From the NCBI GenBank assembly GCA_963813075.1, contig CAWEXU010000004.1, positions 224,001-288,000 on the forward strand: DNA of 64,000 nucleotides, given 5' to 3'. Below the pieces are notes generated by a model, which was not told where the DNA came from, ran no database searches, and worked only from the letters and a program-made list of their open reading frames with translations. This document shows positions 1-51,130 of the stretch, piece after piece. Source of the stretch: Methanotrichaceae archaeon. GTDB lineage: Archaea > Halobacteriota > Methanosarcinia > Methanotrichales > Methanotrichaceae. The translations under genes and the position numbers were made by a program. Each line of letters begins with the position of its first letter. The stretch's first letter is position 1.

Positions 1-562
1 CGACCTTTCCACTGGATAAGCTGGAGATGACCTTTGGGATCAGGAAATCGGATCTTTGACCAGGCCCATAGACATTGAATGGCCTGAGGATTACGCATTT
101 TATTCCAAAATCATCGTGATATGATTTGCATAGCTCTTCTCCAATCAGCTTGCTCCTTGAATAGGGATTGGTTGGATCTGTGCAATGCTTTTCATCCACA
201 GGCAGATATTGCGGCTGTCCGTAAACATATGAGCTAGCATATATTATTTTATCGATGTCATTCCGCCGGCAAGTCTCCAGTATGTTTAATGTGCCAAGAA
301 CATTTGTCTCATAGGTCGCATGCGGATTTTCATAGGATGAATTCACGGACGTCTTGGCTGCCAGATGATATATCATATCTATGTCGCCAAGCTGGTCTAT
401 CTTCCCCCTGATCAGATCCTTATTCCTGATGTCCAGGCGATTGCCATTGAGGTCCTTTAGCAGTATCAGCTCTGAATTCAGCTCTTTTAGAGCATTGACC
501 AGATGTCTGCCTACGAATCCATTCTCCCCGGTTATTGATATTCTTTTTTCGCTAAGTCCCAT
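1..562 (-). CDS. NAD-dependent epimerase/dehydratase (extended SDR), truncated by window edge
   Basis: Not in ORF track; my translation from ATG 562: MGLSEKRISITGENGFVGRHL...IYHLAAKTSV...YASSYVYG...PYSRSK...LRPFNVYGPGQ (GxxGxxG-like and YxxxK motifs). Confidence 0.9.
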   Translation of the reverse strand, partial: MGLSEKRISITGENGFVGRHLVNALKELNSELILLKDLNGNRLDIRNKDLIRGKIDQLGDIDMIYHLAAKTSVNSSYENPHATYETNVLGTLNILETCRRNDIDKIIYASSYVYGQPQYLPVDEKHCTDPTNPYSRSKLIGEELCKSYHDDFGIKCVILRPFNVYGPGQRSDFLIPKVISSLSSGKV

Positions 563-1274
563 CTATGCTAACCCCTAGCTCGCGATATATTTTCTGAATA
601 TCCTCATTGGCCCGGTCATAATCATCCGGTCTGCCGATATCCAGCCAATAGCCCTCATGAATAAAGCCATTAACCGTTTCCCCATCGGCCAACAATCTCT
701 TCATCAAGTCCGGTATATCTAAATATTCATTTGAAGGTATATATTTCAGCACGCGCTCATTAAATGCGTAAACACCCATGCTTACCAGGTAATCGATCCT
801 GGGCTTTTCAGTGTAGCCAATGAGCCTTCGGTCAGAATCCAGATTAACTACGCCAAAATCGATGTCAACGTGTCTTCGATTGAGAGCTATGGTCGCTATT
901 GACCCTGTTCTCTTATGGAATGCCAGAAATTCCGAAAAATCCAGGCTTGTCAGGACATCTCCATTCATCACCAGGAAATCATCTTTCAGCTCATTTTTCA
1001 ATAGACCCAATCCGCCGGCCGTTCCAAGCTTCGTCTCCTCTCTTGAGTATTCTATCTTCAAGCCGTACTTGCTGCCGCTATTGAAGAAGGCCATTATCAA
1101 CTCTGCCAGGTGTCCGACTGCCATGGTGATCTCATCAAAGCCTTTGGCCTTCAATTGCCTGATGATTATCTCCAGGATTGGTGACTCGCCAATGGGCATC
1201 AGCGGCTTGGGAAATACGGTGGTATAGGGCCTCAGCCTCGTGCCCAACCCTCCCGCAAGGATTACAGCTTTCAT
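552..1274 (-). CDS. Sugar-phosphate nucleotidyltransferase (NTP_transferase family)
   Basis: LAGGLGTRLRPYT..PKPL, LGTAG, NGD, EKP, WLDIGRPDDY motifs. Confidence 0.92.
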   Translation of the reverse strand: MKAVILAGGLGTRLRPYTTVFPKPLMPIGESPILEIIIRQLKAKGFDEITMAVGHLAELIMAFFNSGSKYGLKIEYSREETKLGTAGGLGLLKNELKDDFLVMNGDVLTSLDFSEFLAFHKRTGSIATIALNRRHVDIDFGVVNLDSDRRLIGYTEKPRIDYLVSMGVYAFNERVLKYIPSNEYLDIPDLMKRLLADGETVNGFIHEGYWLDIGRPDDYDRANEDIQKIYRELGVSIDGT

Positions 1275-1281
1275 TTTTCTC

Positions 1282-2271
1282 CTAGCATTTAACTAATTTA
1301 ATCAAATTTTTATTCGCACGGACCCATTCTATTGTCTCCTGCAGGCCTTCATCTAAAGAGACTTGCGGACCCCAGTTCAGCAATCTCCTGGCTTTTGCAT
1401 TGTCGCACCACAATCTCTGTACCTCACTCTTTTGTGGCCTGACTCGCGAGGAATCCTGGATTATATCGATCTTCTTATCCAATAAGGACGAGATCTTCCC
1501 GGCCAGGTCACCCATGGACACCTCAAAATTCGATCCGATATTGATGACCTCTCCAATCGACCTATCTGATTCTGCTACTTTGATAAATCCATTTACGGTA
1601 TCTTTGACATAGGTATAATCGCGGGTAGGGAACAGGGATCCCAATTTTATGGTCTCTTGCTGTATGGCTTGAGTGATGATGGTAGGGATTATCGCTCTCG
1701 TAGACTGCCTGGGCCCATATGTATTAAAAGGTCTGATTGTTGCCACAGGAAGGTCAAAAGCACAGTAGAAGCTCTCCGCTATTTTATCCGCCCCGATCTT
1801 GCTGGCAGAGTAGGGAGATTGACCCTGCAGTGGGTGTTTTTCATCTATTGGAACATATAATGCCGTGCCATATACCTCGCTGGATGATGTATGGACGATC
1901 TTCTCCACACCCAGATCTCTTGCTGCCGTTAGCACATTTAATGTACTTGATATATTATTTTCTATAGTATCTCTGGGCCTATTGTATGAGTAAGGAATAG
2001 AGATCAATGATCCAAGATGAAATATAACATCAACATCTTTAGCCGCGCCAAGTACTGCATCGTAATCCTTAAGGTCTCCTGAAACGATCTGGAGGGAATC
2101 AAGCATATGTCGTGGGAGTATCTCCAGCAATCCCCAATCATTCCTCGAGTTGTATCTCAAAAAGCCTTTTACTTCAGCGCCCAGATCAACGAGGCGCTCA
2201 ATCAGATGGCTCCCTATAAAGCCTCCGGCTCCTGTAACTAATACTTTCTTTTTGCTCCAGTGATAGTCCAT
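1282..2271 (-). CDS. NDP-sugar 4,6-dehydratase / NAD-dependent epimerase (LegB-like)
   Basis: TGAGGFIGSHL, HTSSSEVYG, QSPYSASK, RPFNTYGPRQS, SEVQRL motifs. Confidence 0.9.
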   Translation of the reverse strand: MDYHWSKKKVLVTGAGGFIGSHLIERLVDLGAEVKGFLRYNSRNDWGLLEILPRHMLDSLQIVSGDLKDYDAVLGAAKDVDVIFHLGSLISIPYSYNRPRDTIENNISSTLNVLTAARDLGVEKIVHTSSSEVYGTALYVPIDEKHPLQGQSPYSASKIGADKIAESFYCAFDLPVATIRPFNTYGPRQSTRAIIPTIITQAIQQETIKLGSLFPTRDYTYVKDTVNGFIKVAESDRSIGEVINIGSNFEVSMGDLAGKISSLLDKKIDIIQDSSRVRPQKSEVQRLWCDNAKARRLLNWGPQVSLDEGLQETIEWVRANKNLIKLVKC

Positions 2272-2451
2272 TCTATAGCCTCTAGTTTATTCATTATCTA
2301 AACTATATAGTCTCACTATATATTCTTACTATATATCTCACTAAATTATCCTTTGATGGCAATCTCATTTTCCATAGGCAATATTTATAGCCTCTGTGTA
2401 CGCCCTCAGCTAGCGATTATCCTTGACGGCAACCATATCTCGTGCTCAGTA

Positions 2452-2485
2452 ATCGGGCCTTTATGGATATCGGGCCTTTATGGAT
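2452..2485. repeat. Perfect 17-bp tandem duplication (atcgggcctttatggat x2)
   Basis: Read directly in the intergenic sequence. Confidence 0.85.
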
Positions 2486-2544
2486 ATTATAGTTGTGAAC
2501 CAAAGATCGAAACATATTTGTCGCTCAAAATAAGCCTTAACACG

Positions 2545-4074
2545 TCAAATATTGGTTTGCATCTTTTTTGCATAAATAAAAACTTTTTCAGAATTTAAAA
2601 TTTTATTTATTTTTTCATTATTTTCTAATAAATGCTCGTTGACCTTCCAGGGCACAATCTGGATCCAATTACCGACATTTAAAGCATTTAAATCGTTATT
2701 TATTATAAAATAATCATTGGAGCTATATTCTGTTCTTTTTATGAGAAAAGCTACATCATTTTCATCCAATGTTTGAAAATTCTGAGTTCTGTAGGACATG
2801 ATATAGTAATTCTTCGTCAGCTCATCGCTTCTCATCTGAGTTCCGCTTGTCTCTTCTTTGCACCAAGATAATGGCAGACTAAGATAATTGAATTTATCTA
2901 AATCTTTATTGGAAAGGTCCTCATTATATATCAAGATGTGATAGATGGGATTCATGGCCAATAGGATGATTATCCCAGCAATTGCCCATTTTTTTATAGA
3001 TCCGCCATTGCCGTACATCCAGGCTATGCTGAAGACGGCAGGATAATAAAAAAAACCGATTTCCACATGCCCTATCATGAGGCGAATTACCGCCCAAATC
3101 ACCATTGACGAGAGTATTGATATTATAAATATTGAGTGTATTTTATATCGAGTGTTGACTGAAGTTATGAAATGAATTAAAAACAGCGTAAGAAAAACCA
3201 GAAGAATGCCATATTTAACATAGCCATAGTAGGTAATGGATTGGGGATAATGAAGATATATATCTCTTAGAATATTATCCTGAGCATTGGCGGAAAAATA
3301 GGATAGCACGAATTTATCCAGTACAGACAGTGTAAATGAATCTGAAGATTTTAATGCATTAATAAAATTATTGTAAACAAATTCTGTAAGCCCCAGCTCG
3401 GCAATGATCAGCAAAATCAATAATTTTATCGATTGATGCTGTCGGTAATCCAGATTATTTCTGCTTAAATGCGCGGGATTATTAAATATCATTGAGTAGA
3501 TTATAAATGACGATAAAAATAGCAGATAAGTGAAAATCACGTCATATGATGTAAATACCAGAGAAATTCCTACGATCACTGCCAGCAGATGATATTGCCA
3601 GACAGATCTATCTTTGCCGGAAAAGATCAATAAGAATAATATCAATAAAGCGAAATATAATATACTGCCTATACCATGCGGCCAGAAAAAGATCCTTTGG
3701 GTGCCAGTGAATCCCGTTGTCAACTCAGTAATCGAGATTAAGCTCGCTAAAAAATAGCTATTGGAAATTTTCAGCAATAAGACAAAGAAAAGCACAGTAT
3801 AGGGGATCAGTTGGATTGGAGAAAATAATAAAAAACGGCTGCTTTCGCCCAGCATCAGTGCCAGCTCAGAACCCAATAAGTGGAAAGAGGGAACGGTATT
3901 TCTATATGCATCCAGCAAGAATCCTTTTTCCATCGTTTCATCTATTGCGCTTATTTGAAGCGGCGCAAAAGCATCTATTGAGCTGTTAAAATGCAGGAGA
4001 ATATAAATGTAAGATACTGCAAACGCAATGATATATATCTTTTTAATTCTCATATCACGAAAAGCGATTGGCAT
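2545..4074 (-). CDS. Polytopic membrane protein of a glycosylation cluster (Wzy/GT-C-like, function uncertain)
   Basis: 509 aa, about 10-12 hydrophobic segments, AT-rich, flanked by glycosyltransferases. Confidence 0.65.
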   Translation of the reverse strand: MPIAFRDMRIKKIYIIAFAVSYIYILLHFNSSIDAFAPLQISAIDETMEKGFLLDAYRNTVPSFHLLGSELALMLGESSRFLLFSPIQLIPYTVLFFVLLLKISNSYFLASLISITELTTGFTGTQRIFFWPHGIGSILYFALLILFLLIFSGKDRSVWQYHLLAVIVGISLVFTSYDVIFTYLLFLSSFIIYSMIFNNPAHLSRNNLDYRQHQSIKLLILLIIAELGLTEFVYNNFINALKSSDSFTLSVLDKFVLSYFSANAQDNILRDIYLHYPQSITYYGYVKYGILLVFLTLFLIHFITSVNTRYKIHSIFIISILSSMVIWAVIRLMIGHVEIGFFYYPAVFSIAWMYGNGGSIKKWAIAGIIILLAMNPIYHILIYNEDLSNKDLDKFNYLSLPLSWCKEETSGTQMRSDELTKNYYIMSYRTQNFQTLDENDVAFLIKRTEYSSNDYFIINNDLNALNVGNWIQIVPWKVNEHLLENNEKINKILNSEKVFIYAKKMQTNI

Positions 4075-4164
4075 ATATCAAACACGATTTATCTATTCAA
4101 TCTGCTGCCCCCAATCGAGGGGCACTTATCTATCATGAGCACTTATCTATTTCGGGCACTCATT

Positions 4165-5238
4165 TTAATCAACCGGATTATGCAGCAGTCGATCTGATAT
4201 CTGCAGCAGTCTGTTCTCGATCCGTTTCTGATATGACGTTCTTACGGCCTTAAGGCAGGCGTAATTCCAAATATATATCATATTGCACAGCCTTATAATC
4301 AGGACGTCCAATTTATATCTTGTTAACTGATCATCCGGGATCTTATCATATAAGGAACCAATGAGCAGGTGGGAATTTCCTTTAACCGGCGTGATTTCAT
4401 CGGTAAGGCCGTGTACCATCGCCAGTATTTTATTGTATAAATATTCCACACCCCCCCTTGATGCATAGCCAAAGGTCAGCATTTCTGTAAGCAAAAGGGA
4501 TGGACTGAGAAGGAGGAGACAATTGGTGGAGAGGTATTTTCTCAATATCGTGTATCTTCCCTTCTCCAGGTAATATAATTTTTTAGGAGTCATCTTTAAT
4601 ATGTAATCATGCTTGACCACCGATAAAGGAGTATACAGGATTTTAAATCCATTCAGATTGGCTCTCCAGGAAAGATCGGCATCTTCATTGTACATGAAAA
4701 ATCTTCTGTCAAACCCCCCCAGGCTCAAATAGTGATCCCGTCTTATGGCAAATGAACAGCCAGAGATGCCGCTAATTCGCTTTTTGCAGGATTGCATGTC
4801 TGAAGCATCACCCAATCCCCTGGTAAATGAGAGGCCTGAAAAATGATTTATGGCACCACAGGTGTTTATAATGTCGCCGTTATAGGTTAATATCTTGGGC
4901 GTGGTGATGATTTTGTCGGTATTTTTTAAGGGCTTGATAAGCTCTCTGAGCCACCCCTCTTCCACAATTGTATCCGGATTGAGTATCACGATGTACTCGC
5001 CAATGGCATGTTTTACTCCCTCATTATTTCCGGCCCCGTAGCCTGCATTTTCCCCATTCTCAATCAATCTGACATGAGGATATTTATTTTTTAATATATT
5101 GCAACTGTTATCTGTAGAATTATTATCAACAGCAACGATCTCATGAGGATAATCTTGTTTCATTATAGAATCGATACATGCTTCAATATAACGGCCGCTA
5201 TTGTAAAGAACGACAATTACGCTGGCTAATTCATCCAT
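4165..5238 (-). CDS. Glycosyltransferase family 2
   Basis: VDNNSTD, NAGYGAGNN, LNPD, FFMYNEDADL motifs. Confidence 0.92.
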   Translation of the reverse strand: MDELASVIVVLYNSGRYIEACIDSIMKQDYPHEIVAVDNNSTDNSCNILKNKYPHVRLIENGENAGYGAGNNEGVKHAIGEYIVILNPDTIVEEGWLRELIKPLKNTDKIITTPKILTYNGDIINTCGAINHFSGLSFTRGLGDASDMQSCKKRISGISGCSFAIRRDHYLSLGGFDRRFFMYNEDADLSWRANLNGFKILYTPLSVVKHDYILKMTPKKLYYLEKGRYTILRKYLSTNCLLLLSPSLLLTEMLTFGYASRGGVEYLYNKILAMVHGLTDEITPVKGNSHLLIGSLYDKIPDDQLTRYKLDVLIIRLCNMIYIWNYACLKAVRTSYQKRIENRLLQISDRLLHNPVD

Positions 5239-5283
5239 ATGTCCGGTATACCTCCTTGTGTATCTTTCTTTTTTGTATTGTTT

Positions 5284-6219
5284 TCAATTATTCCCCTCCG
5301 TAACTCCTCCTCCCTGTGCCAGTAGCTCCCTTTTGAACTCGTGCATAACCCGCGACAGTATATGCAGAATCATTCCTGTGAGCGCCAGGAAAGATCCAAG
5401 CAGCATCAGCAAAATCATTAGCAGCGTTGGGCCGTACTGCAGGCTACCGCCGTGAGCAAACGTCCTGAGGAACTCCAGTGCCATCAGTATTCCCGCCCCC
5501 GCCATCAGAGATCCTGGGAGGGTGAAATAGATGAGCGGTTTTCGCAACTGCATGTCGTGCAGGACATTAAAAAGAACCCGAAGTCCATGGACCACAGGGT
5601 TTTCTGATGAGCCATTCACATCGTAGCGCACCCCGATCTCCACCTCCTGGATGCGCAGGCCTGCAGCAGCGGCGTCGGCCAGCATCTCGCTCTCTATGGC
5701 CAGGCCCTTCTGCTCGAAACGGAATATTCCTTTGGTCCGACCGGCAAAAGCCCTGAATCCGCTCTGGGTATCGGTTATTGAGAGGCCGCAACCTATGTTG
5801 GTGGCCAGGTCAAGCACCTTCTGGCCCATGCGACGGTATACTGGCGTATCTTTCTTATTCCCGTTCAGGTAGCGGCTGCCGTTGACCATATCCGCATCAC
5901 CCTCTAAAATGGGACTCACCAGGCGAGGGATGTCCTCAGGGTCATGCTGTCCGTCGGTATCTATAGTGACAATAACCGCATCGCCGTTGAGGGAAGCAAA
6001 ACCAGTCTTCAGAGCCGCACCCTTTCCAAGGTTCATCTCATGGCGCAGCACCTGAGCACCTGCCAGGGCGGCAACCTCTGCCGTGCGGTCCATGCTGCCG
6101 TCATCTATCACTATTACCCGGTCTGCGTATTTGAGTGTGCGCAGGACAATGCTGCCTATTGACACCTCCTCGTTGTAGGCCGGCAATATGGCTGTAATCT
6201 CCCCCACCAAACTCTCCAC
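5284..6219 (-). CDS. GT2 DPM1-like polyprenol-phosphate glycosyltransferase with 2 C-terminal TM helices
   Basis: PAYNEE, IDDGSMD, GKGAA, DTDGQHDP, DTQSGFRA motifs. Confidence 0.9.
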   Translation of the reverse strand: MESLVGEITAILPAYNEEVSIGSIVLRTLKYADRVIVIDDGSMDRTAEVAALAGAQVLRHEMNLGKGAALKTGFASLNGDAVIVTIDTDGQHDPEDIPRLVSPILEGDADMVNGSRYLNGNKKDTPVYRRMGQKVLDLATNIGCGLSITDTQSGFRAFAGRTKGIFRFEQKGLAIESEMLADAAAAGLRIQEVEIGVRYDVNGSSENPVVHGLRVLFNVLHDMQLRKPLIYFTLPGSLMAGAGILMALEFLRTFAHGGSLQYGPTLLMILLMLLGSFLALTGMILHILSRVMHEFKRELLAQGGGVTEGNN

Positions 6220-37005: not shown

Positions 37006-37024
37006 GAAAGAAAGGTCTATAAAA
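37006..37024 (+). promoter_or_regulatory. Putative BRE-TATA promoter of the tgt-yhhQ operon (probably leaderless)
   Basis: gaaagaaaggtcTATAAAA ending 22 nt before ATG 37047. Confidence 0.55.
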
Positions 37025-37046
37025 CCCGGGTCACCCCTAACGAGAA

Positions 37047-38402
37047 ATGAACGGATTTTCCTTTGAGGTACTGGACCGGGATCCAGAGAGCAATGCTCGG
37101 GCAGGGCTGATAAAAACCCGCCGGGGCGATATCCAGACCCCCTATCTGGTGCCTGTGGCCACATTGGGCAGCGTGCGCGCTCTGAACTCAGATGACCTTG
37201 CATCTCTTGGGGTCTCCTGTGCCCTGGCCAACACCTATCACCTTCACCTCAAGCCGGGGGACGAGCTGATCGGTGGTCTGGGGGGGCTGCATAAGTTCAT
37301 GGGATTCTCTGGACCCCTCTTCACCGACTCGGGCGGCTTCCAGGCTTTTTCCCTTGGCTTTGGCAGAGAGCATAATATCGCCAAGATCGGCAACATCTTC
37401 CCTCAAGAGCTTTCCTCCTTTCCAGGAGATGAAGACTGCCGGCAAGGCGGCAATAATCCGTGCGAAAAAGAGCCAGAAAACGAGATTTATAGACTGAACT
37501 ACAGAAACAGCTACGGAGGAAAGGCAGCCAGGGGTAATGACGACTCTTATAAGGCCAGCGGAAAGGGGCAGAAGAGTGCCAGGAAGGAGAACCTGACGAA
37601 GATCACAGACGAGGGCATCTCTTTCAAGTCCATGGCCGACGGGGCCTGGCATTTCCTGGATGCTGAAAGGTCGATGAGAATCCAGTCCAACCTGGGCTCG
37701 GATATCATCATGGCCTTTGACGAGTGCACCTCACCTCTGTCAGACTACGACTACACCAAAAAAGCGATGTACAGGACTCACGACTGGGCGTCGGAGTCCA
37801 TCCGCCATCATGACAGGAGCCAGGCCATCTACGGCATCATCCAGGGAGGATGGTTTGAGGACCTGAGGCGCATCAGCACCGACTTCGTCGTCTCCCAGCC
37901 TTTTGACGGCATAGCCATCGGCGGATCTCTGGGGAACAGCAAGCAGGATATGCATCAGGTCCTGGACTGGACAATTCATAAGCTGGACGACCGGCCGAGG
38001 CACCTATTGGGGATAGGGGAGATAGATGACATCTTCGAATGCGTGGCCAGGGGAATTGATACCTTCGACTGCGTCTCACCCACCAGGATCGCCCGCAGGG
38101 GAAGTCTCCTCCTATCGCCCCAGTCCGGCGGATCATTGAAAAACAAGTTCCACCTGAACATAAAGTCCGCAAGGTTCAAAGATGACGGCCTGCCCATTGA
38201 CCCGGTCTGCTCCTGCCCGACCTGCCGTACCTATTCCCGGGCCTATCTCCGCCATCTTTACATTGCGGGAGAGCTCTCGTACTTCCGCCTGGCGACGCTG
38301 CATAACCTCCATTTCATGCTCCGCCTGATGGAAGAGATAAGGGAGAGCATAAGAAGTGGCGGCTTTTGGGAGCTTAAGGACAGATGGCTGAAAGGGATTT
38401 AG
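37047..38402 (+). CDS. tgt: Bacterial-type tRNA-guanine(34) transglycosylase
   Basis: LANTYHL, FTDSGGFQ, MAFDEC, GIIQGG, AIGGSLG, RHLLGIG, DTFDCVSPTRIARRG, CSCPTC and HNL zinc site; no PUA domain. Confidence 0.93.
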   Translation: MNGFSFEVLDRDPESNARAGLIKTRRGDIQTPYLVPVATLGSVRALNSDDLASLGVSCALANTYHLHLKPGDELIGGLGGLHKFMGFSGPLFTDSGGFQAFSLGFGREHNIAKIGNIFPQELSSFPGDEDCRQGGNNPCEKEPENEIYRLNYRNSYGGKAARGNDDSYKASGKGQKSARKENLTKITDEGISFKSMADGAWHFLDAERSMRIQSNLGSDIIMAFDECTSPLSDYDYTKKAMYRTHDWASESIRHHDRSQAIYGIIQGGWFEDLRRISTDFVVSQPFDGIAIGGSLGNSKQDMHQVLDWTIHKLDDRPRHLLGIGEIDDIFECVARGIDTFDCVSPTRIARRGSLLLSPQSGGSLKNKFHLNIKSARFKDDGLPIDPVCSCPTCRTYSRAYLRHLYIAGELSYFRLATLHNLHFMLRLMEEIRESIRSGGFWELKDRWLKGI

Positions 38403-39127
38403 CGGCAGATATTCCGGGGCAGAAGGGATCTACATTCGCAGGAGGACGGCTGAGGATCGACAAAACCCAGGCCACCATAATCCTCTGCGGCCTGTACCTC
38501 TTCTATTCCCTGGCCGGAAACATCGCTGCCACCAAGGTCACGTCCTTCGGCAGCCTGGTCATGGATGCCGGCTTCATCTATTCTCTGACCTTCACCTGGA
38601 GAGACCTGATCCACAAGCAGTTGGGGGAGAAGGCGGCCCTCACCACCATCTGGCTGGCGGCGGGCTTGAATCTGCTTGTTGCCATCTATTTTCAGTTTGT
38701 GGTCCTCCTGCCCGCTCAGACGGACTGGGCAAATAGCGGCGGACAGGCGGCCTGGACATTTCTTTTCGGGATCCTGGACAGCACCGGCCAGGGCTGGCAG
38801 TCGGTCTTTTCCCTGCAGATGAGAATCGTTCTCGCCTCCATTCTCACCGCTCTCCTGGCGGAGCTGATCGACACCAGAGTCTACCGCATCTGGACCCGGG
38901 GGAGACGCAAAAACTGGCCCCAGTGGACGCGAGTCTTCGCCTCCAATGCCGTATCCATTCCCTTAGACAGCCTCCTCTTTCCGGTGATCGCCTTTATGGG
39001 AATCGTGGGGGCAGAGGGGCTGGTGCAGATGATCTGGACCAATATACTGGTCAAGGCAGCGATCACCCTCCTGTTCTTCTGGACGATCTACCTGGTACCA
39101 GAGAAGCCGATCTACCTGGATCGCTGA
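38384..39127 (+). CDS. yhhQ: Queuosine precursor transporter (YhhQ/VUT, COG1738)
   Basis: NIAATKV, YSLTFTWRDLIHKQLG, RIVLASI.A.L.AELID..VY, R..ASNAVSIPLDSLLF..IAF; overlaps tgt by 19 nt. Confidence 0.88.
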   Translation: MAERDLAADIPGQKGSTFAGGRLRIDKTQATIILCGLYLFYSLAGNIAATKVTSFGSLVMDAGFIYSLTFTWRDLIHKQLGEKAALTTIWLAAGLNLLVAIYFQFVVLLPAQTDWANSGGQAAWTFLFGILDSTGQGWQSVFSLQMRIVLASILTALLAELIDTRVYRIWTRGRRKNWPQWTRVFASNAVSIPLDSLLFPVIAFMGIVGAEGLVQMIWTNILVKAAITLLFFWTIYLVPEKPIYLDR

Positions 39128-49480: not shown

Positions 49481-50360
49481 ATGTCTATCAGCCAGAGCGA
49501 CATCCGAGCACTTGTCCTCATTGCCGGATCCGAAGAGCCGGCAACTCCTCGCACCCTCCGAGATGGGCTGGACCTCCAGAGAGAGACAGTCTCCAGGCTC
49601 ATAACTCACCTTGTGCAGATGGGGCTGGTGGAGCGGCGCGGCCATGAAGTCATCCTGGCCAGCACTTCTCCGGCAGAGGCCTTTAAGCGGCTCTACTTCT
49701 CTCATCGGGCCTCTCCTCTGCCTAAGATTCTCTCCCTGCGCAGAGTAGAGCTGCTCGCCAGTCTGGACCGGACCCCCAGGAGCTTGGAGGTTCTGGCTGC
49801 AGGGACGGGCATATCCCAGCGATACCCTGTACAGCTATCTGAAAGGTTTCACCGGGGTAGGAGTTGTCAGCCGCACGAAGCGGGGCAAAGCCTACCTTTA
49901 CTCCTTCAACTTCAAACTCTGGACGGAACTCAAGGATTTCGTGACCGTGCTCCTGGAATACCATGTGCAGCGCCTCGTGCCCCGCGAGGCCCTGCTCATC
50001 AAGAGCTACGGGGACAGCGTGCTATTCAAGAGCATCCGCCCGCAGGACGCCACATTCACCTCATTTTCTGCCTACGAGGATTACGGGATAGAGCTTCTCC
50101 TGCGGGACAATTACTACACCCTGCCCAGGAGGGAGCTTTCCATACAGGAGGTCTTCATCCACTCCCTGGACTCAGCATGGGACTACTCCCAGAAGCTTTT
50201 TTGCGTGCTATTCTATCTAAAGAACAGGGATAAATTGGAAGCTATCGATCATCCCATGATGAAGGATCTGAAAGCAGTGTTGCAGGGAATGAATATTATC
50301 GGCTATCCAACCCTGGAAGACATCGAGGACAGGACGGATCTCTATGATATCAAGCTCTAA
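49481..50360 (+). CDS. Double winged-HTH protein (putative antitoxin/regulator), +1 frameshift at 49815-49817
   Basis: Removing one C joins LAAGTGISSDTLYSYLKGFTGVGVV.. to ORF 49941-50360, giving about 292 aa. Confidence 0.75.
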
Positions 50361-51042
50361 CAAGATCGCAAGGCGAGAGGAGATAAACGAGCTATTCGAG
50401 CAGCTAGGCGAGATTCTGGAAAAGAGGGTCGAAGCCCTGCTGATAGGCGGAGCGGTGATGCTGGAGCTGGGACTCAAAGACGCCACCAAGGATATCGATG
50501 TCGTCTGCAGGAGCGAGGAGGACAAGGAGAGGCTGCTTGCTGCGGCCAGAGTCCTGGGCTTTCAGATTGTCGGCCCGGAGAAGAGGCATGAGCGGCTGGG
50601 CGTAAACCGGTTGGCCGTGAAGGGCGGGCGTAATTTGGACATCTTCGCCGAGAGGATCTCATACAACTTTAATCTGTCCGAGGCCATGTGGCAGAGAGCT
50701 ACAAAGATCAGGTTCTTCGGCCATCTGGTGATTAGAAATGCATCCCTCGAGGACATCTTCATCATGAAGCTGATCGCCAACAGGCCGGGAGACGCCTCTG
50801 ACTGCTCCAAGCTTGTCCTTGCAGAACTGGACTTCGATGCGGTCTACCAGGAGATAGAGGCGCAGTACCGGAAGGAAGGTGAGTATGAACAGAATATCTG
50901 GGTTACCTATATCGAAGAGGGCATAGCCCGCCTGGAGGATAACGACCTGATCATTCCCATAGGCGACAAAATATCCCTGCTGGCCCACGAATATCACGAA
51001 AAATCTTCTCATAATTTAAATCTAATAAAGCGCCGAGGGTGA
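50344..51042 (+). CDS. DUF6036-like nucleotidyltransferase (AbiEii/MenT-related fold)
   Basis: LIGGAVM..G..ATKDIDVV, LDIF, EDIFIMKL..R.GD..D. Confidence 0.8.
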   Translation: MISSSNKIARREEINELFEQLGEILEKRVEALLIGGAVMLELGLKDATKDIDVVCRSEEDKERLLAAARVLGFQIVGPEKRHERLGVNRLAVKGGRNLDIFAERISYNFNLSEAMWQRATKIRFFGHLVIRNASLEDIFIMKLIANRPGDASDCSKLVLAELDFDAVYQEIEAQYRKEGEYEQNIWVTYIEEGIARLEDNDLIIPIGDKISLLAHEYHEKSSHNLNLIKRRG

Positions 51043-51130
51043 GATTCGAACTCACGAGACCCTTGCGAGTCACCAGCTATCCAGGAGAAACTCACTCCAG
51101 GCTGGCGCCCTACCGCTAGACGACCTCGGC
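51031..51130 (-). tRNA. tRNA-Ser(GGA) with a 16-nt intron at 37/38 (51079-51094)
   Basis: GCCGAGG/CCTCGGC acceptor stem, CCAGC/GCTGG anticodon stem, anticodon GGA at 51096-51098, long variable arm, TTCGAAT loop, bulge-helix-bulge intron. Confidence 0.95.

Follow-up and report, generated by a model that had tools for sequence, protein, structure and literature searches.

We analysed a stretch of 64,000 nucleotides (the window; positions 224,001 to 288,000 of contig CAWEXU010000004.1, assembly GCA_963813075.1) from a Methanotrichaceae archaeon, in which the gene tgt, encoding a tRNA-guanine transglycosylase (TGT) of the bacterial type, is followed by a gene for a transporter of the QPTR/YhhQ family (Table 1). 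An earlier note, made from the DNA letters alone, had read the two genes as a candidate operon for salvage of queuosine (Q). They constitute a real, family-wide, and probably functional pair for salvage, assembled from known parts.

Table 1. Features of the tgt-QPTR locus (positions in the window; aa, amino acids; dN/dS, ratio of nonsynonymous to synonymous substitution rates; pLDDT, predicted local distance difference test; BRE, transcription factor B recognition element)
Feature	Position	Strand	Evidence
BRE/TATA-like string GAAAGAAAGG-TCTATAAA, putative archaeal promoter	37006..37023	+	sequence; TATA starts 31 nt before tgt ATG
tgt, bacterial-type tRNA-guanine(34) transglycosylase, GGSLG/insert subclass, 451 aa	37047..38402	+	TIGR00430, fold, dN/dS
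Asp94, aligned with catalytic Asp102 of Zymomonas mobilis TGT (DSGGFQ)	37326..37328	+	alignments
Insert after DSGGFQxxSLG (about residues 105-180): short class-wide part and hypervariable in-frame extension in Methanothrix	37359..37586	+	spacing, pLDDT
GGSLG pocket loop, residues 292-296	37920..37934	+	alignments
Asp341, aligned with nucleophile Asp280 (FDCxxPTRxARxG)	38067..38069	+	alignments
Zinc site, Cys388, Cys390, Cys393, and His419	38208..38303	+	invariant in alignment A1
QPTR/YhhQ (COG1738, VUT) transporter, 247 aa, divergent subtype tied to tgt	38384..39127	+	TIGR00697, PF02592, distribution

The TGT scored 449.6 bits against TIGR00430, the model of G34 enzymes (cut-off, 306.75), versus 113.9 against TIGR00432, the model of the archaeal G15 enzymes (arcTGT; cut-off, 350), and 22.9 against the DpdA model NF041059 (cut-off, 200). 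PF01702 was its sole Pfam domain, and hence the protein lacks the C-terminal C1–C3/PUA domains; all the motifs by which the earlier note had recognized a G34-type TGT devoid of a PUA domain were found. The AlphaFold model (pLDDT, 77.8; below 50 for residues 99–180) shows the TGT barrel and matches the fold of Z. mobilis TGT, with a template modelling score of 0.90 over the target. Besides the catalytic pair and the zinc site, Asp225, Gln266, and Gly293 correspond to the conserved Asp156, Gln203, and Gly230, and the equivalents of Arg286 and Arg289 are kept, the Z. mobilis numbering being taken from alignments; for Asp102, Asp280, Met260, Lys264, and Glu235 we assume the roles generally attributed to them in the canonical enzyme. 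The dN/dS value of the TGT core was 0.04–0.11 in six pairwise comparisons with relatives. The GC contents at third codon positions (GC3) of tgt and the transporter gene are 0.70 and 0.77, respectively (genome median, 0.68), with codon adaptation ordinary for the genome, and a search of the ESM Atlas returned known families only. By profile, residues, and fold, the protein is an intact bacterial-type G34 enzyme, which would exchange the base at G34.

The class-specific insert (~75 residues), which like the GGSLG pocket is absent from the earlier note, adjoins the active site in the alignment and the model, where it is disordered. The spacing between DSGGxQ and FDEC is 130 residues here, 53 in Escherichia coli, 77–85 in other archaea and the nearest bacteria, and 88–152 in Methanothrix-type loci. 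Within Methanothrix, the insert (window 37401–37580) has grown in frame to many lengths, by up to ~75 extra residues, and evolves fast (dN, 0.27–0.82 vs 0.05–0.14 in the core), with acidic, Cys-containing strings in several copies. DSAGFQ replaces DSGGFQ in the loci L068 and L175/L086, and in 7 of 60 relatives. Among the other TGTs collected, P0198, P0200, P0205, P0213, P0222, and others are 650–685 residues long, having a canonical pocket and ~300 extra C-terminal residues.

The second open reading frame (ORF) passed both TIGR00697 (60.9; cut-off, 50.95) and PF02592 (111.9, above cut-off), and its start overlaps the end of tgt by 19 nt, so that the COG1738/YhhQ transporter and the overlap described in the earlier note are exact. 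Five hydrophobic 19-mers scoring >1.6 mark the product as a multi-pass membrane protein; its dN/dS was 0.10–0.17 (six relatives), and its best matches in a plasmid collection were 31–33% identical. The 72-bp gap upstream of tgt is common to a divergent gene. The BRE-TATA element claimed for this gap is present as a string, nearly identical in the locus L066; conservation of the pattern, which was written post hoc, is weak (hits in 5 of the 51 distinct upstream regions, against a mean of 0.8 and a maximum of 4 after shuffling). An Rfam search gave no preQ1 riboswitch, one tRNA being the sole match. None of the 21 expression runs contained half of the words searched. In four runs, all of contigs, tgt and QPTR are bridged by contigs of ~87% identity and by short pieces that match almost exactly; as the adjoining DNA is covered alike, this coverage is no evidence of transcription. 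The genes flanking the pair vary, the downstream 267-aa gene occurring in 1 of 65 loci (L044–L108), and the neighbors upstream are common to 8–10 related loci.

The distribution of the pair was surveyed in all 105 Methanotrichales genomes, a bacterial-type TGT being called at E ≤ 1e-50. It was detected in 76 genomes (74 over the cut-off; 46 of the 64 high-quality ones) and in 11 of 16 genera, including 54 of the 58 other members of the genus and none of the 16 genomes of genus g21; the closest named relatives, at 63–87% identity, are from Methanothrix/Methanotrichaceae. QPTR genes of any subtype occur in 94 of the 105 genomes. The subtype found in the window, separated by Pfam score band (≤117 vs ≥145 bits) with a sequence check on a subset, is present in 70 of the 76 genomes with tgt and in 0 of the 29 without it. 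In 68 of these 70 it directly follows tgt on the same strand, and other subtypes occur in 19 of the 29 tgt-less genomes. Because these relatives are not independent, the co-occurrence counts are a pattern and not a statistic, and the QPTR tree, which carries long-branch warnings, serves only to separate the subtypes. A second QPTR clade, ~25% identical, stands beside GGSLG-type tgt genes in other archaea. In some Methanotrichaceae (loci L080, L084, and L236; genomes G092 and G094), another QPTR clade, common to Archaeoglobaceae and a Woesearchaeota bin, replaces the window's subtype. In a genus member (G020, 93% complete) without the transporter, a 99-residue tgt remnant lies beside a transposase-like ORF (L202, 9515–9901), which is a loss of the pair. 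Elsewhere (L130; G033:C187:18804-22016), a QueF-like match adjoins genes for a QPTR of the canonical type, for an AAA_24 protein, and for DUF669, an arrangement suggestive of a viral or mobile element with deazaguanine genes. The pair is old in the Methanotrichaceae and inherited with losses. The acquisition by this methanogen that the earlier note proposed is not supported in that form, since this strain did not gain the pair recently: the trait belongs to the family, is of a type also present in ANME-1 and Archaeoglobaceae, and has no close bacterial donor among the named bacteria found, the nearest of which are 41–47% identical.

arcTGT is encoded by a separate gene in 101 of the 105 genomes of the order and in all 64 high-quality ones. 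The reading of TGT and QPTR in the earlier note, which had proposed a search for a separate arcTGT, is supported in that the two form a pair for salvage and differ from arcTGT. Neither arcTGT nor ArcS was found in the present assembly, which consists of 31 contigs and is 83% complete with 3.4% contamination. In two relatives (G005 and G022), arcTGT and ArcS adjoin DNA that is also missing here, including the genes of ribosomal S4, S11, and S13 in G022; since the neighboring genes are missing as well and the genome is incomplete, an assembly gap is the likely cause, and loss of arcTGT by this strain was rejected as an explanation.

In a wider sample of the phylum, 78 of 401 genomes have a bacterial-type TGT, and PMC8204110 (2021) reports QueA, QueH, and Tgt in 34 archaeal genomes including Methanosarcinales, with four TGT rows for Methanomicrobia; the few archaeal exceptions mentioned in the earlier note were therefore understated. 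The archaeal enzymes fall into two kinds. In the families f4, f5, and f8 (9/9 genomes; seven loci fetched), the pocket reads GGL[SC]IGE and queA stands beside tgt in 7/7 fetched loci, whereas every fetched locus of the families f1, f7 (Archaeoglobaceae; 46/75), f14 (ANME-1; 7/39, four loci fetched), and f32 has GGSLG and no queA beside it; QueA was found in 0 of 92 genomes of f7. Archaeoglobus fulgidus reportedly has both TGT types, according to the curator's note to TIGR00430. A tree of 56 chosen rows (LG+C20; deep branches unstarred) sets the insert-bearing class apart from the canonical TGTs (100/98 for the rows sampled). Methanotrichaceae, ANME-1, and one Bathyarchaeia bin group together at 99/98 (100/99 on adding a Woesearchaeota protein and another), with the f7/f32 clade as sister at 91/88 only. 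The TGTs of f4, f5, and f8 and the GGSLG TGTs represent, on these sequences, separate acquisitions, and a single archaeal origin of the latter is possible. No bacterial TGT above 47% identity occurs among the named loci, and neither donor nor direction was assigned. The ANME-1 copies and the copy of the Bathyarchaeia bin nest inside the Methanotrichaceae, which suggests transfer between archaea or mis-binning.

The genes for making or completing the queuosine precursor preQ1 are nearly absent, as the search recommended in the earlier note reveals: QueA was found in 0 of 59 genomes of the genus and, in the order, QueF in 2 of 105, QueH in 1 (on a 1.7-kb contig), and QueG in 0 over the cut-off, at most 18 candidates being scored per genome. 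Therefore, neither preQ1 synthesis nor completion of preQ1-tRNA is possible by known routes. All four GUN-anticodon tRNAs (Asp, Asn, His, and Tyr) are encoded in the genome with U33-G34-U35, that for Tyr with an intron and that for Asn apparently with one.

The pocket loop of the TGT, GGSLGNSK, is one residue shorter than GGLAVGEPK of the E. coli enzyme, with neither the Val233 side chain nor Glu235. All 60 distinct full-length relatives (L044–L108) have GGSLG, as do 32 of 32 members of the family f7. The pocket of the TGT of Chlamydia, the only bacterial enzyme tested as inserting queuine, is presumably also GGSLG. GGSLG is present in 115, and Cys158 in 117, of the 119 relatives of the protein P0149, among which are TGTs of Wolbachia and Holosporales. 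In PMC11570991, Wolbachia and Holosporales are among the TGT-only taxa (Table S2), and GGSLG of Anaplasma, identical to the motif here, is modelled at 4.0 Å from queuine, leaving room for queuine (Fig. S1). Qng1 (PF10343), which releases queuine (PMC9881137), is encoded in 4/4 checked bacterial genomes having an exact GGSLG TGT, where its gene precedes tgt by 15–871 nt in the same orientation; one of these genomes, G134, is unpublished, and G135–G137 alone sustain the linkage. In G137, a canonical tgt is beside queA and the GGSLG tgt is beside qng1, and in a fifth bacterial genome, with a GGFFG TGT, no Qng1 was found. The substrate, left open in the earlier note as queuine or preQ, is thus narrowed by pocket, gene content, and Qng1 linkage, which point to free queuine.

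We consider it likely, with a probability of about 0.6, that the pair carries out direct import and insertion of queuine, giving Q at position 34 (Q34) of tRNA-Asp, -Asn, -His, and -Tyr. This reading is preferred because the G34 profile, the intact catalytic and zinc residues, and the four GUN tRNAs are all present; because no QueA/QueF/QueG/QueH route was found and the GGSLG pocket is that of TGT-only bacteria; because bacterial GGSLG TGTs are linked to Qng1 and the QPTR subtype tracks the TGT; and because archaeal TGTs split cleanly into GGL[SC]IGE with queA and GGSLG without it. In the proposed mechanism, QPTR would import free queuine released by bacterial tRNA turnover in the community, and the TGT would bind the U33-G34-U35 loop of the four tRNAs and swap G34 for the whole queuine base through the base-exchange chemistry of Asp341 and Asp94. 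Q34 would result without QueA, QueG, or QueH, and archaeosine at G15 would be made separately by arcTGT and ArcS from the cell's own preQ0. The chances seem about even that a single old TGT subclass, specific for queuine and accompanied by an importer, is common to Methanotrichaceae, ANME-1, and Archaeoglobaceae, which would form Q34 alongside archaeosine 15.

Several observations weigh against queuine insertion. In the TGT, Met260 and Lys264 of the canonical enzyme are replaced by Leu321 and Glu325; Cys158 is kept in 60/60 relatives and also in Wolbachia; and the loop does not fit the literal queuine motif GG[LS][AS]G printed in the main text of PMC11570991. The Val233Gly variant of Z. mobilis TGT binds queuine without inserting it and retains affinity for preQ1 (PMC3660597), and a qng1-linked transporter moved preQ0 and preQ1, not queuine (PMC11130926). 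Gene content was misleading for Bartonella, which has tgt and QPTR yet prefers preQ1 (PMC11570991), and G135 has QueA matches, yet only a GGSLG TGT was found. QueC occurs in the present genome, and endogenous preQ0 could compete. Qng1 was found in 0 of 105 Methanotrichales genomes by a search that did match in bacterial genomes, and therefore any free queuine must have an external source. The QueA search covered the genus, and the order-wide searches covered QueF, QueG, QueH, and Qng1. Codon use shows no clear effect of tgt: NAC/(NAC+NAU) is low in this genome (0.43–0.48 vs 0.63–0.84 for other C/U pairs), and the deficit relative to 12 other C/U pairs is similar in 10 Methanotrichaceae with tgt (-0.28 to -1.19) and seven without (-0.66 to -0.88); relative to three pairs of the two-codon type, the genomes with tgt show a modestly greater deficit (-0.69 to -1.34 vs -0.62 to -0.88), five of the seven controls being from one GC-rich genus and ~40 kb being used per genome.

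The presence of QueC and Cys158 and the missing Glu235 would suit a TGT that inserts the cell's preQ0, or imported preQ1/preQ0, at G34 as a dead end, with QPTR as a preQ0/preQ1 importer that may feed archaeosine synthesis. The tgt-QPTR pair of Bartonella, working with preQ1 (PMC11570991), sets a precedent, and archaeal COG1738 proteins have been suggested to salvage preQ0 (PMC5372724). An importer would be of little use for a self-made base, yet the QPTR subtype occurs only with the TGT (70/76 vs 0/29), tgt-less genomes have other subtypes (19/29), Bartonella keeps GGLAVG unlike the TGT here, and the bacterial kin are linked to Qng1; we therefore regard this explanation as rather unlikely. Clearly less probable is a TGT of broad specificity (queuine, preQ1, and preQ0), or an unrecognized archaeal enzyme maturing preQ0/preQ1-34 to Q or wobble archaeosine. 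Bartonella enzymes accept both preQ1 and queuine (PMC11570991), relatives have ArcS, which converts preQ0-tRNA, and the insert adjoins the active site; against this, the variable flanks of the pair hold no linked gene that is a candidate for maturation.

That the protein is no G34 tRNA enzyme, but takes the place of arcTGT at G15 in this strain or has a different nucleic acid as its target, is very improbable. The missing arcTGT and ArcS and the deviating Leu321 and Glu325 could be so explained, but arcTGT is general in the order, its absence here fits an assembly gap, the scores fall far under the TgtA and DpdA cut-offs, and there is no PUA domain. A chimeric assembly or a non-functional recent transfer, to which the many contigs and the contamination of the assembly might lend color, is scarcely credible. 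The same pair occurs in the single-contig genomes G019, G026, and G123, which already refute the chimera named in the earlier note; upstream neighbors are shared among related loci, both genes are under purifying selection, and codon use is native. The archaeal setting of similar GC content described in that note is likewise upheld, archaeal-type uL30, uS5, uL14, uL22, uS19, S4e, and Cbf5 being encoded on the same contig within the window and GC3 lying near the genome median.

Elsewhere in the window, an intron-containing tRNA-Ser(GGA) gene (51031–51130, minus strand) overlaps at its end the final codons of an ORF of 232 aa (50344–51039), which lies after a 250-aa ORF (49481–50230). Neither ORF has an NCBIfam match at 1e-25, and together they may represent a small insertion, either mobile or resembling a toxin-antitoxin pair. 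The region 1–6100 has a low GC content (0.36–0.45) and ORFs resembling sugar-nucleotide and glycosyltransferase genes, and is probably a surface-glycan island.

Queuosine is described as a bacterial and eukaryotic modification, and Q34 is not yet demonstrated in archaea. Methanothrix species are major acetoclastic methanogens that share their habitats with Q-making bacteria and include cultured representatives; therefore, the question of whether archaea carry Q34 is directly testable through this pair. If the preferred reading, queuine salvage, is true, queuine would be a micronutrient passing from bacteria to archaea in methanogenic communities and taken up as by eukaryotes, cross-feeding of a tRNA base would join the known bacterial-archaeal partnerships, GGSLG would be a usable signature of queuine-inserting TGTs, and the rule that archaea are without Q would fail in cultured species. 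The host is unexpected, but the surprise is lessened by the parts being well-known families already annotated by NCBI. A literature search, whose coverage left out most subscription journals, found no published account of a QueA-less archaeal TGT or of queuosine with Methanothrix/Methanosaeta; PMC13520502 mentions neither queuosine nor TGT, and PMC5372724 states that archaea cannot make queuosine.

Among known systems, the pair resembles the direct queuine salvage of Chlamydia trachomatis, reported second-hand in PMC11570991, PMC11130926, and PMC12301720, in consisting of two genes, tgt and QPTR, without queA, queG, or queH, and perhaps in an enlarged pocket; it differs in that the host is a free-living archaeon also making archaeosine and that the transporter is of a divergent subtype. 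Cys158, kept here, is Leu in the BL-TGTs of PMC12301720. With the GGSLG TGTs of the TGT-only bacteria Anaplasma, Wolbachia, and Holosporales and the Qng1-linked TGTs of Xenobia, Thermodesulfobacteriota, and an unclassified bacterium, the enzyme shares GGSLG, FDEC/LDEC, and the insert after DSGGxQ, whereas the archaeal copies pair with QPTR rather than Qng1, identity is 41–47%, and the bacterial substrate is itself only predicted. The fold, the catalytic Asp pair, the zinc site, and the Arg286/Arg289 equivalents are those of canonical Tgt of E. coli and Z. mobilis, from which it departs in GGSLG for GGLAVGE, Met260Leu, Lys264Glu, the insert, and a host without QueA, QueG/QueH, or QueF. From arcTGT/TgtA it is remote (113.9 bits vs 350; ~24–36% local identity), only the superfamily being common and arcTGT being a separate gene in relatives. 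The archaeal QueA-QueH-Tgt sets of Castelle et al. (2021; PMC8204110) likewise place a bacterial-type G34 TGT in archaea, but QueA/QueH are their defining genes, and the comparable f4/f5/f8 loci have GGL[SC]IGE beside queA and branch with the canonical TGTs.

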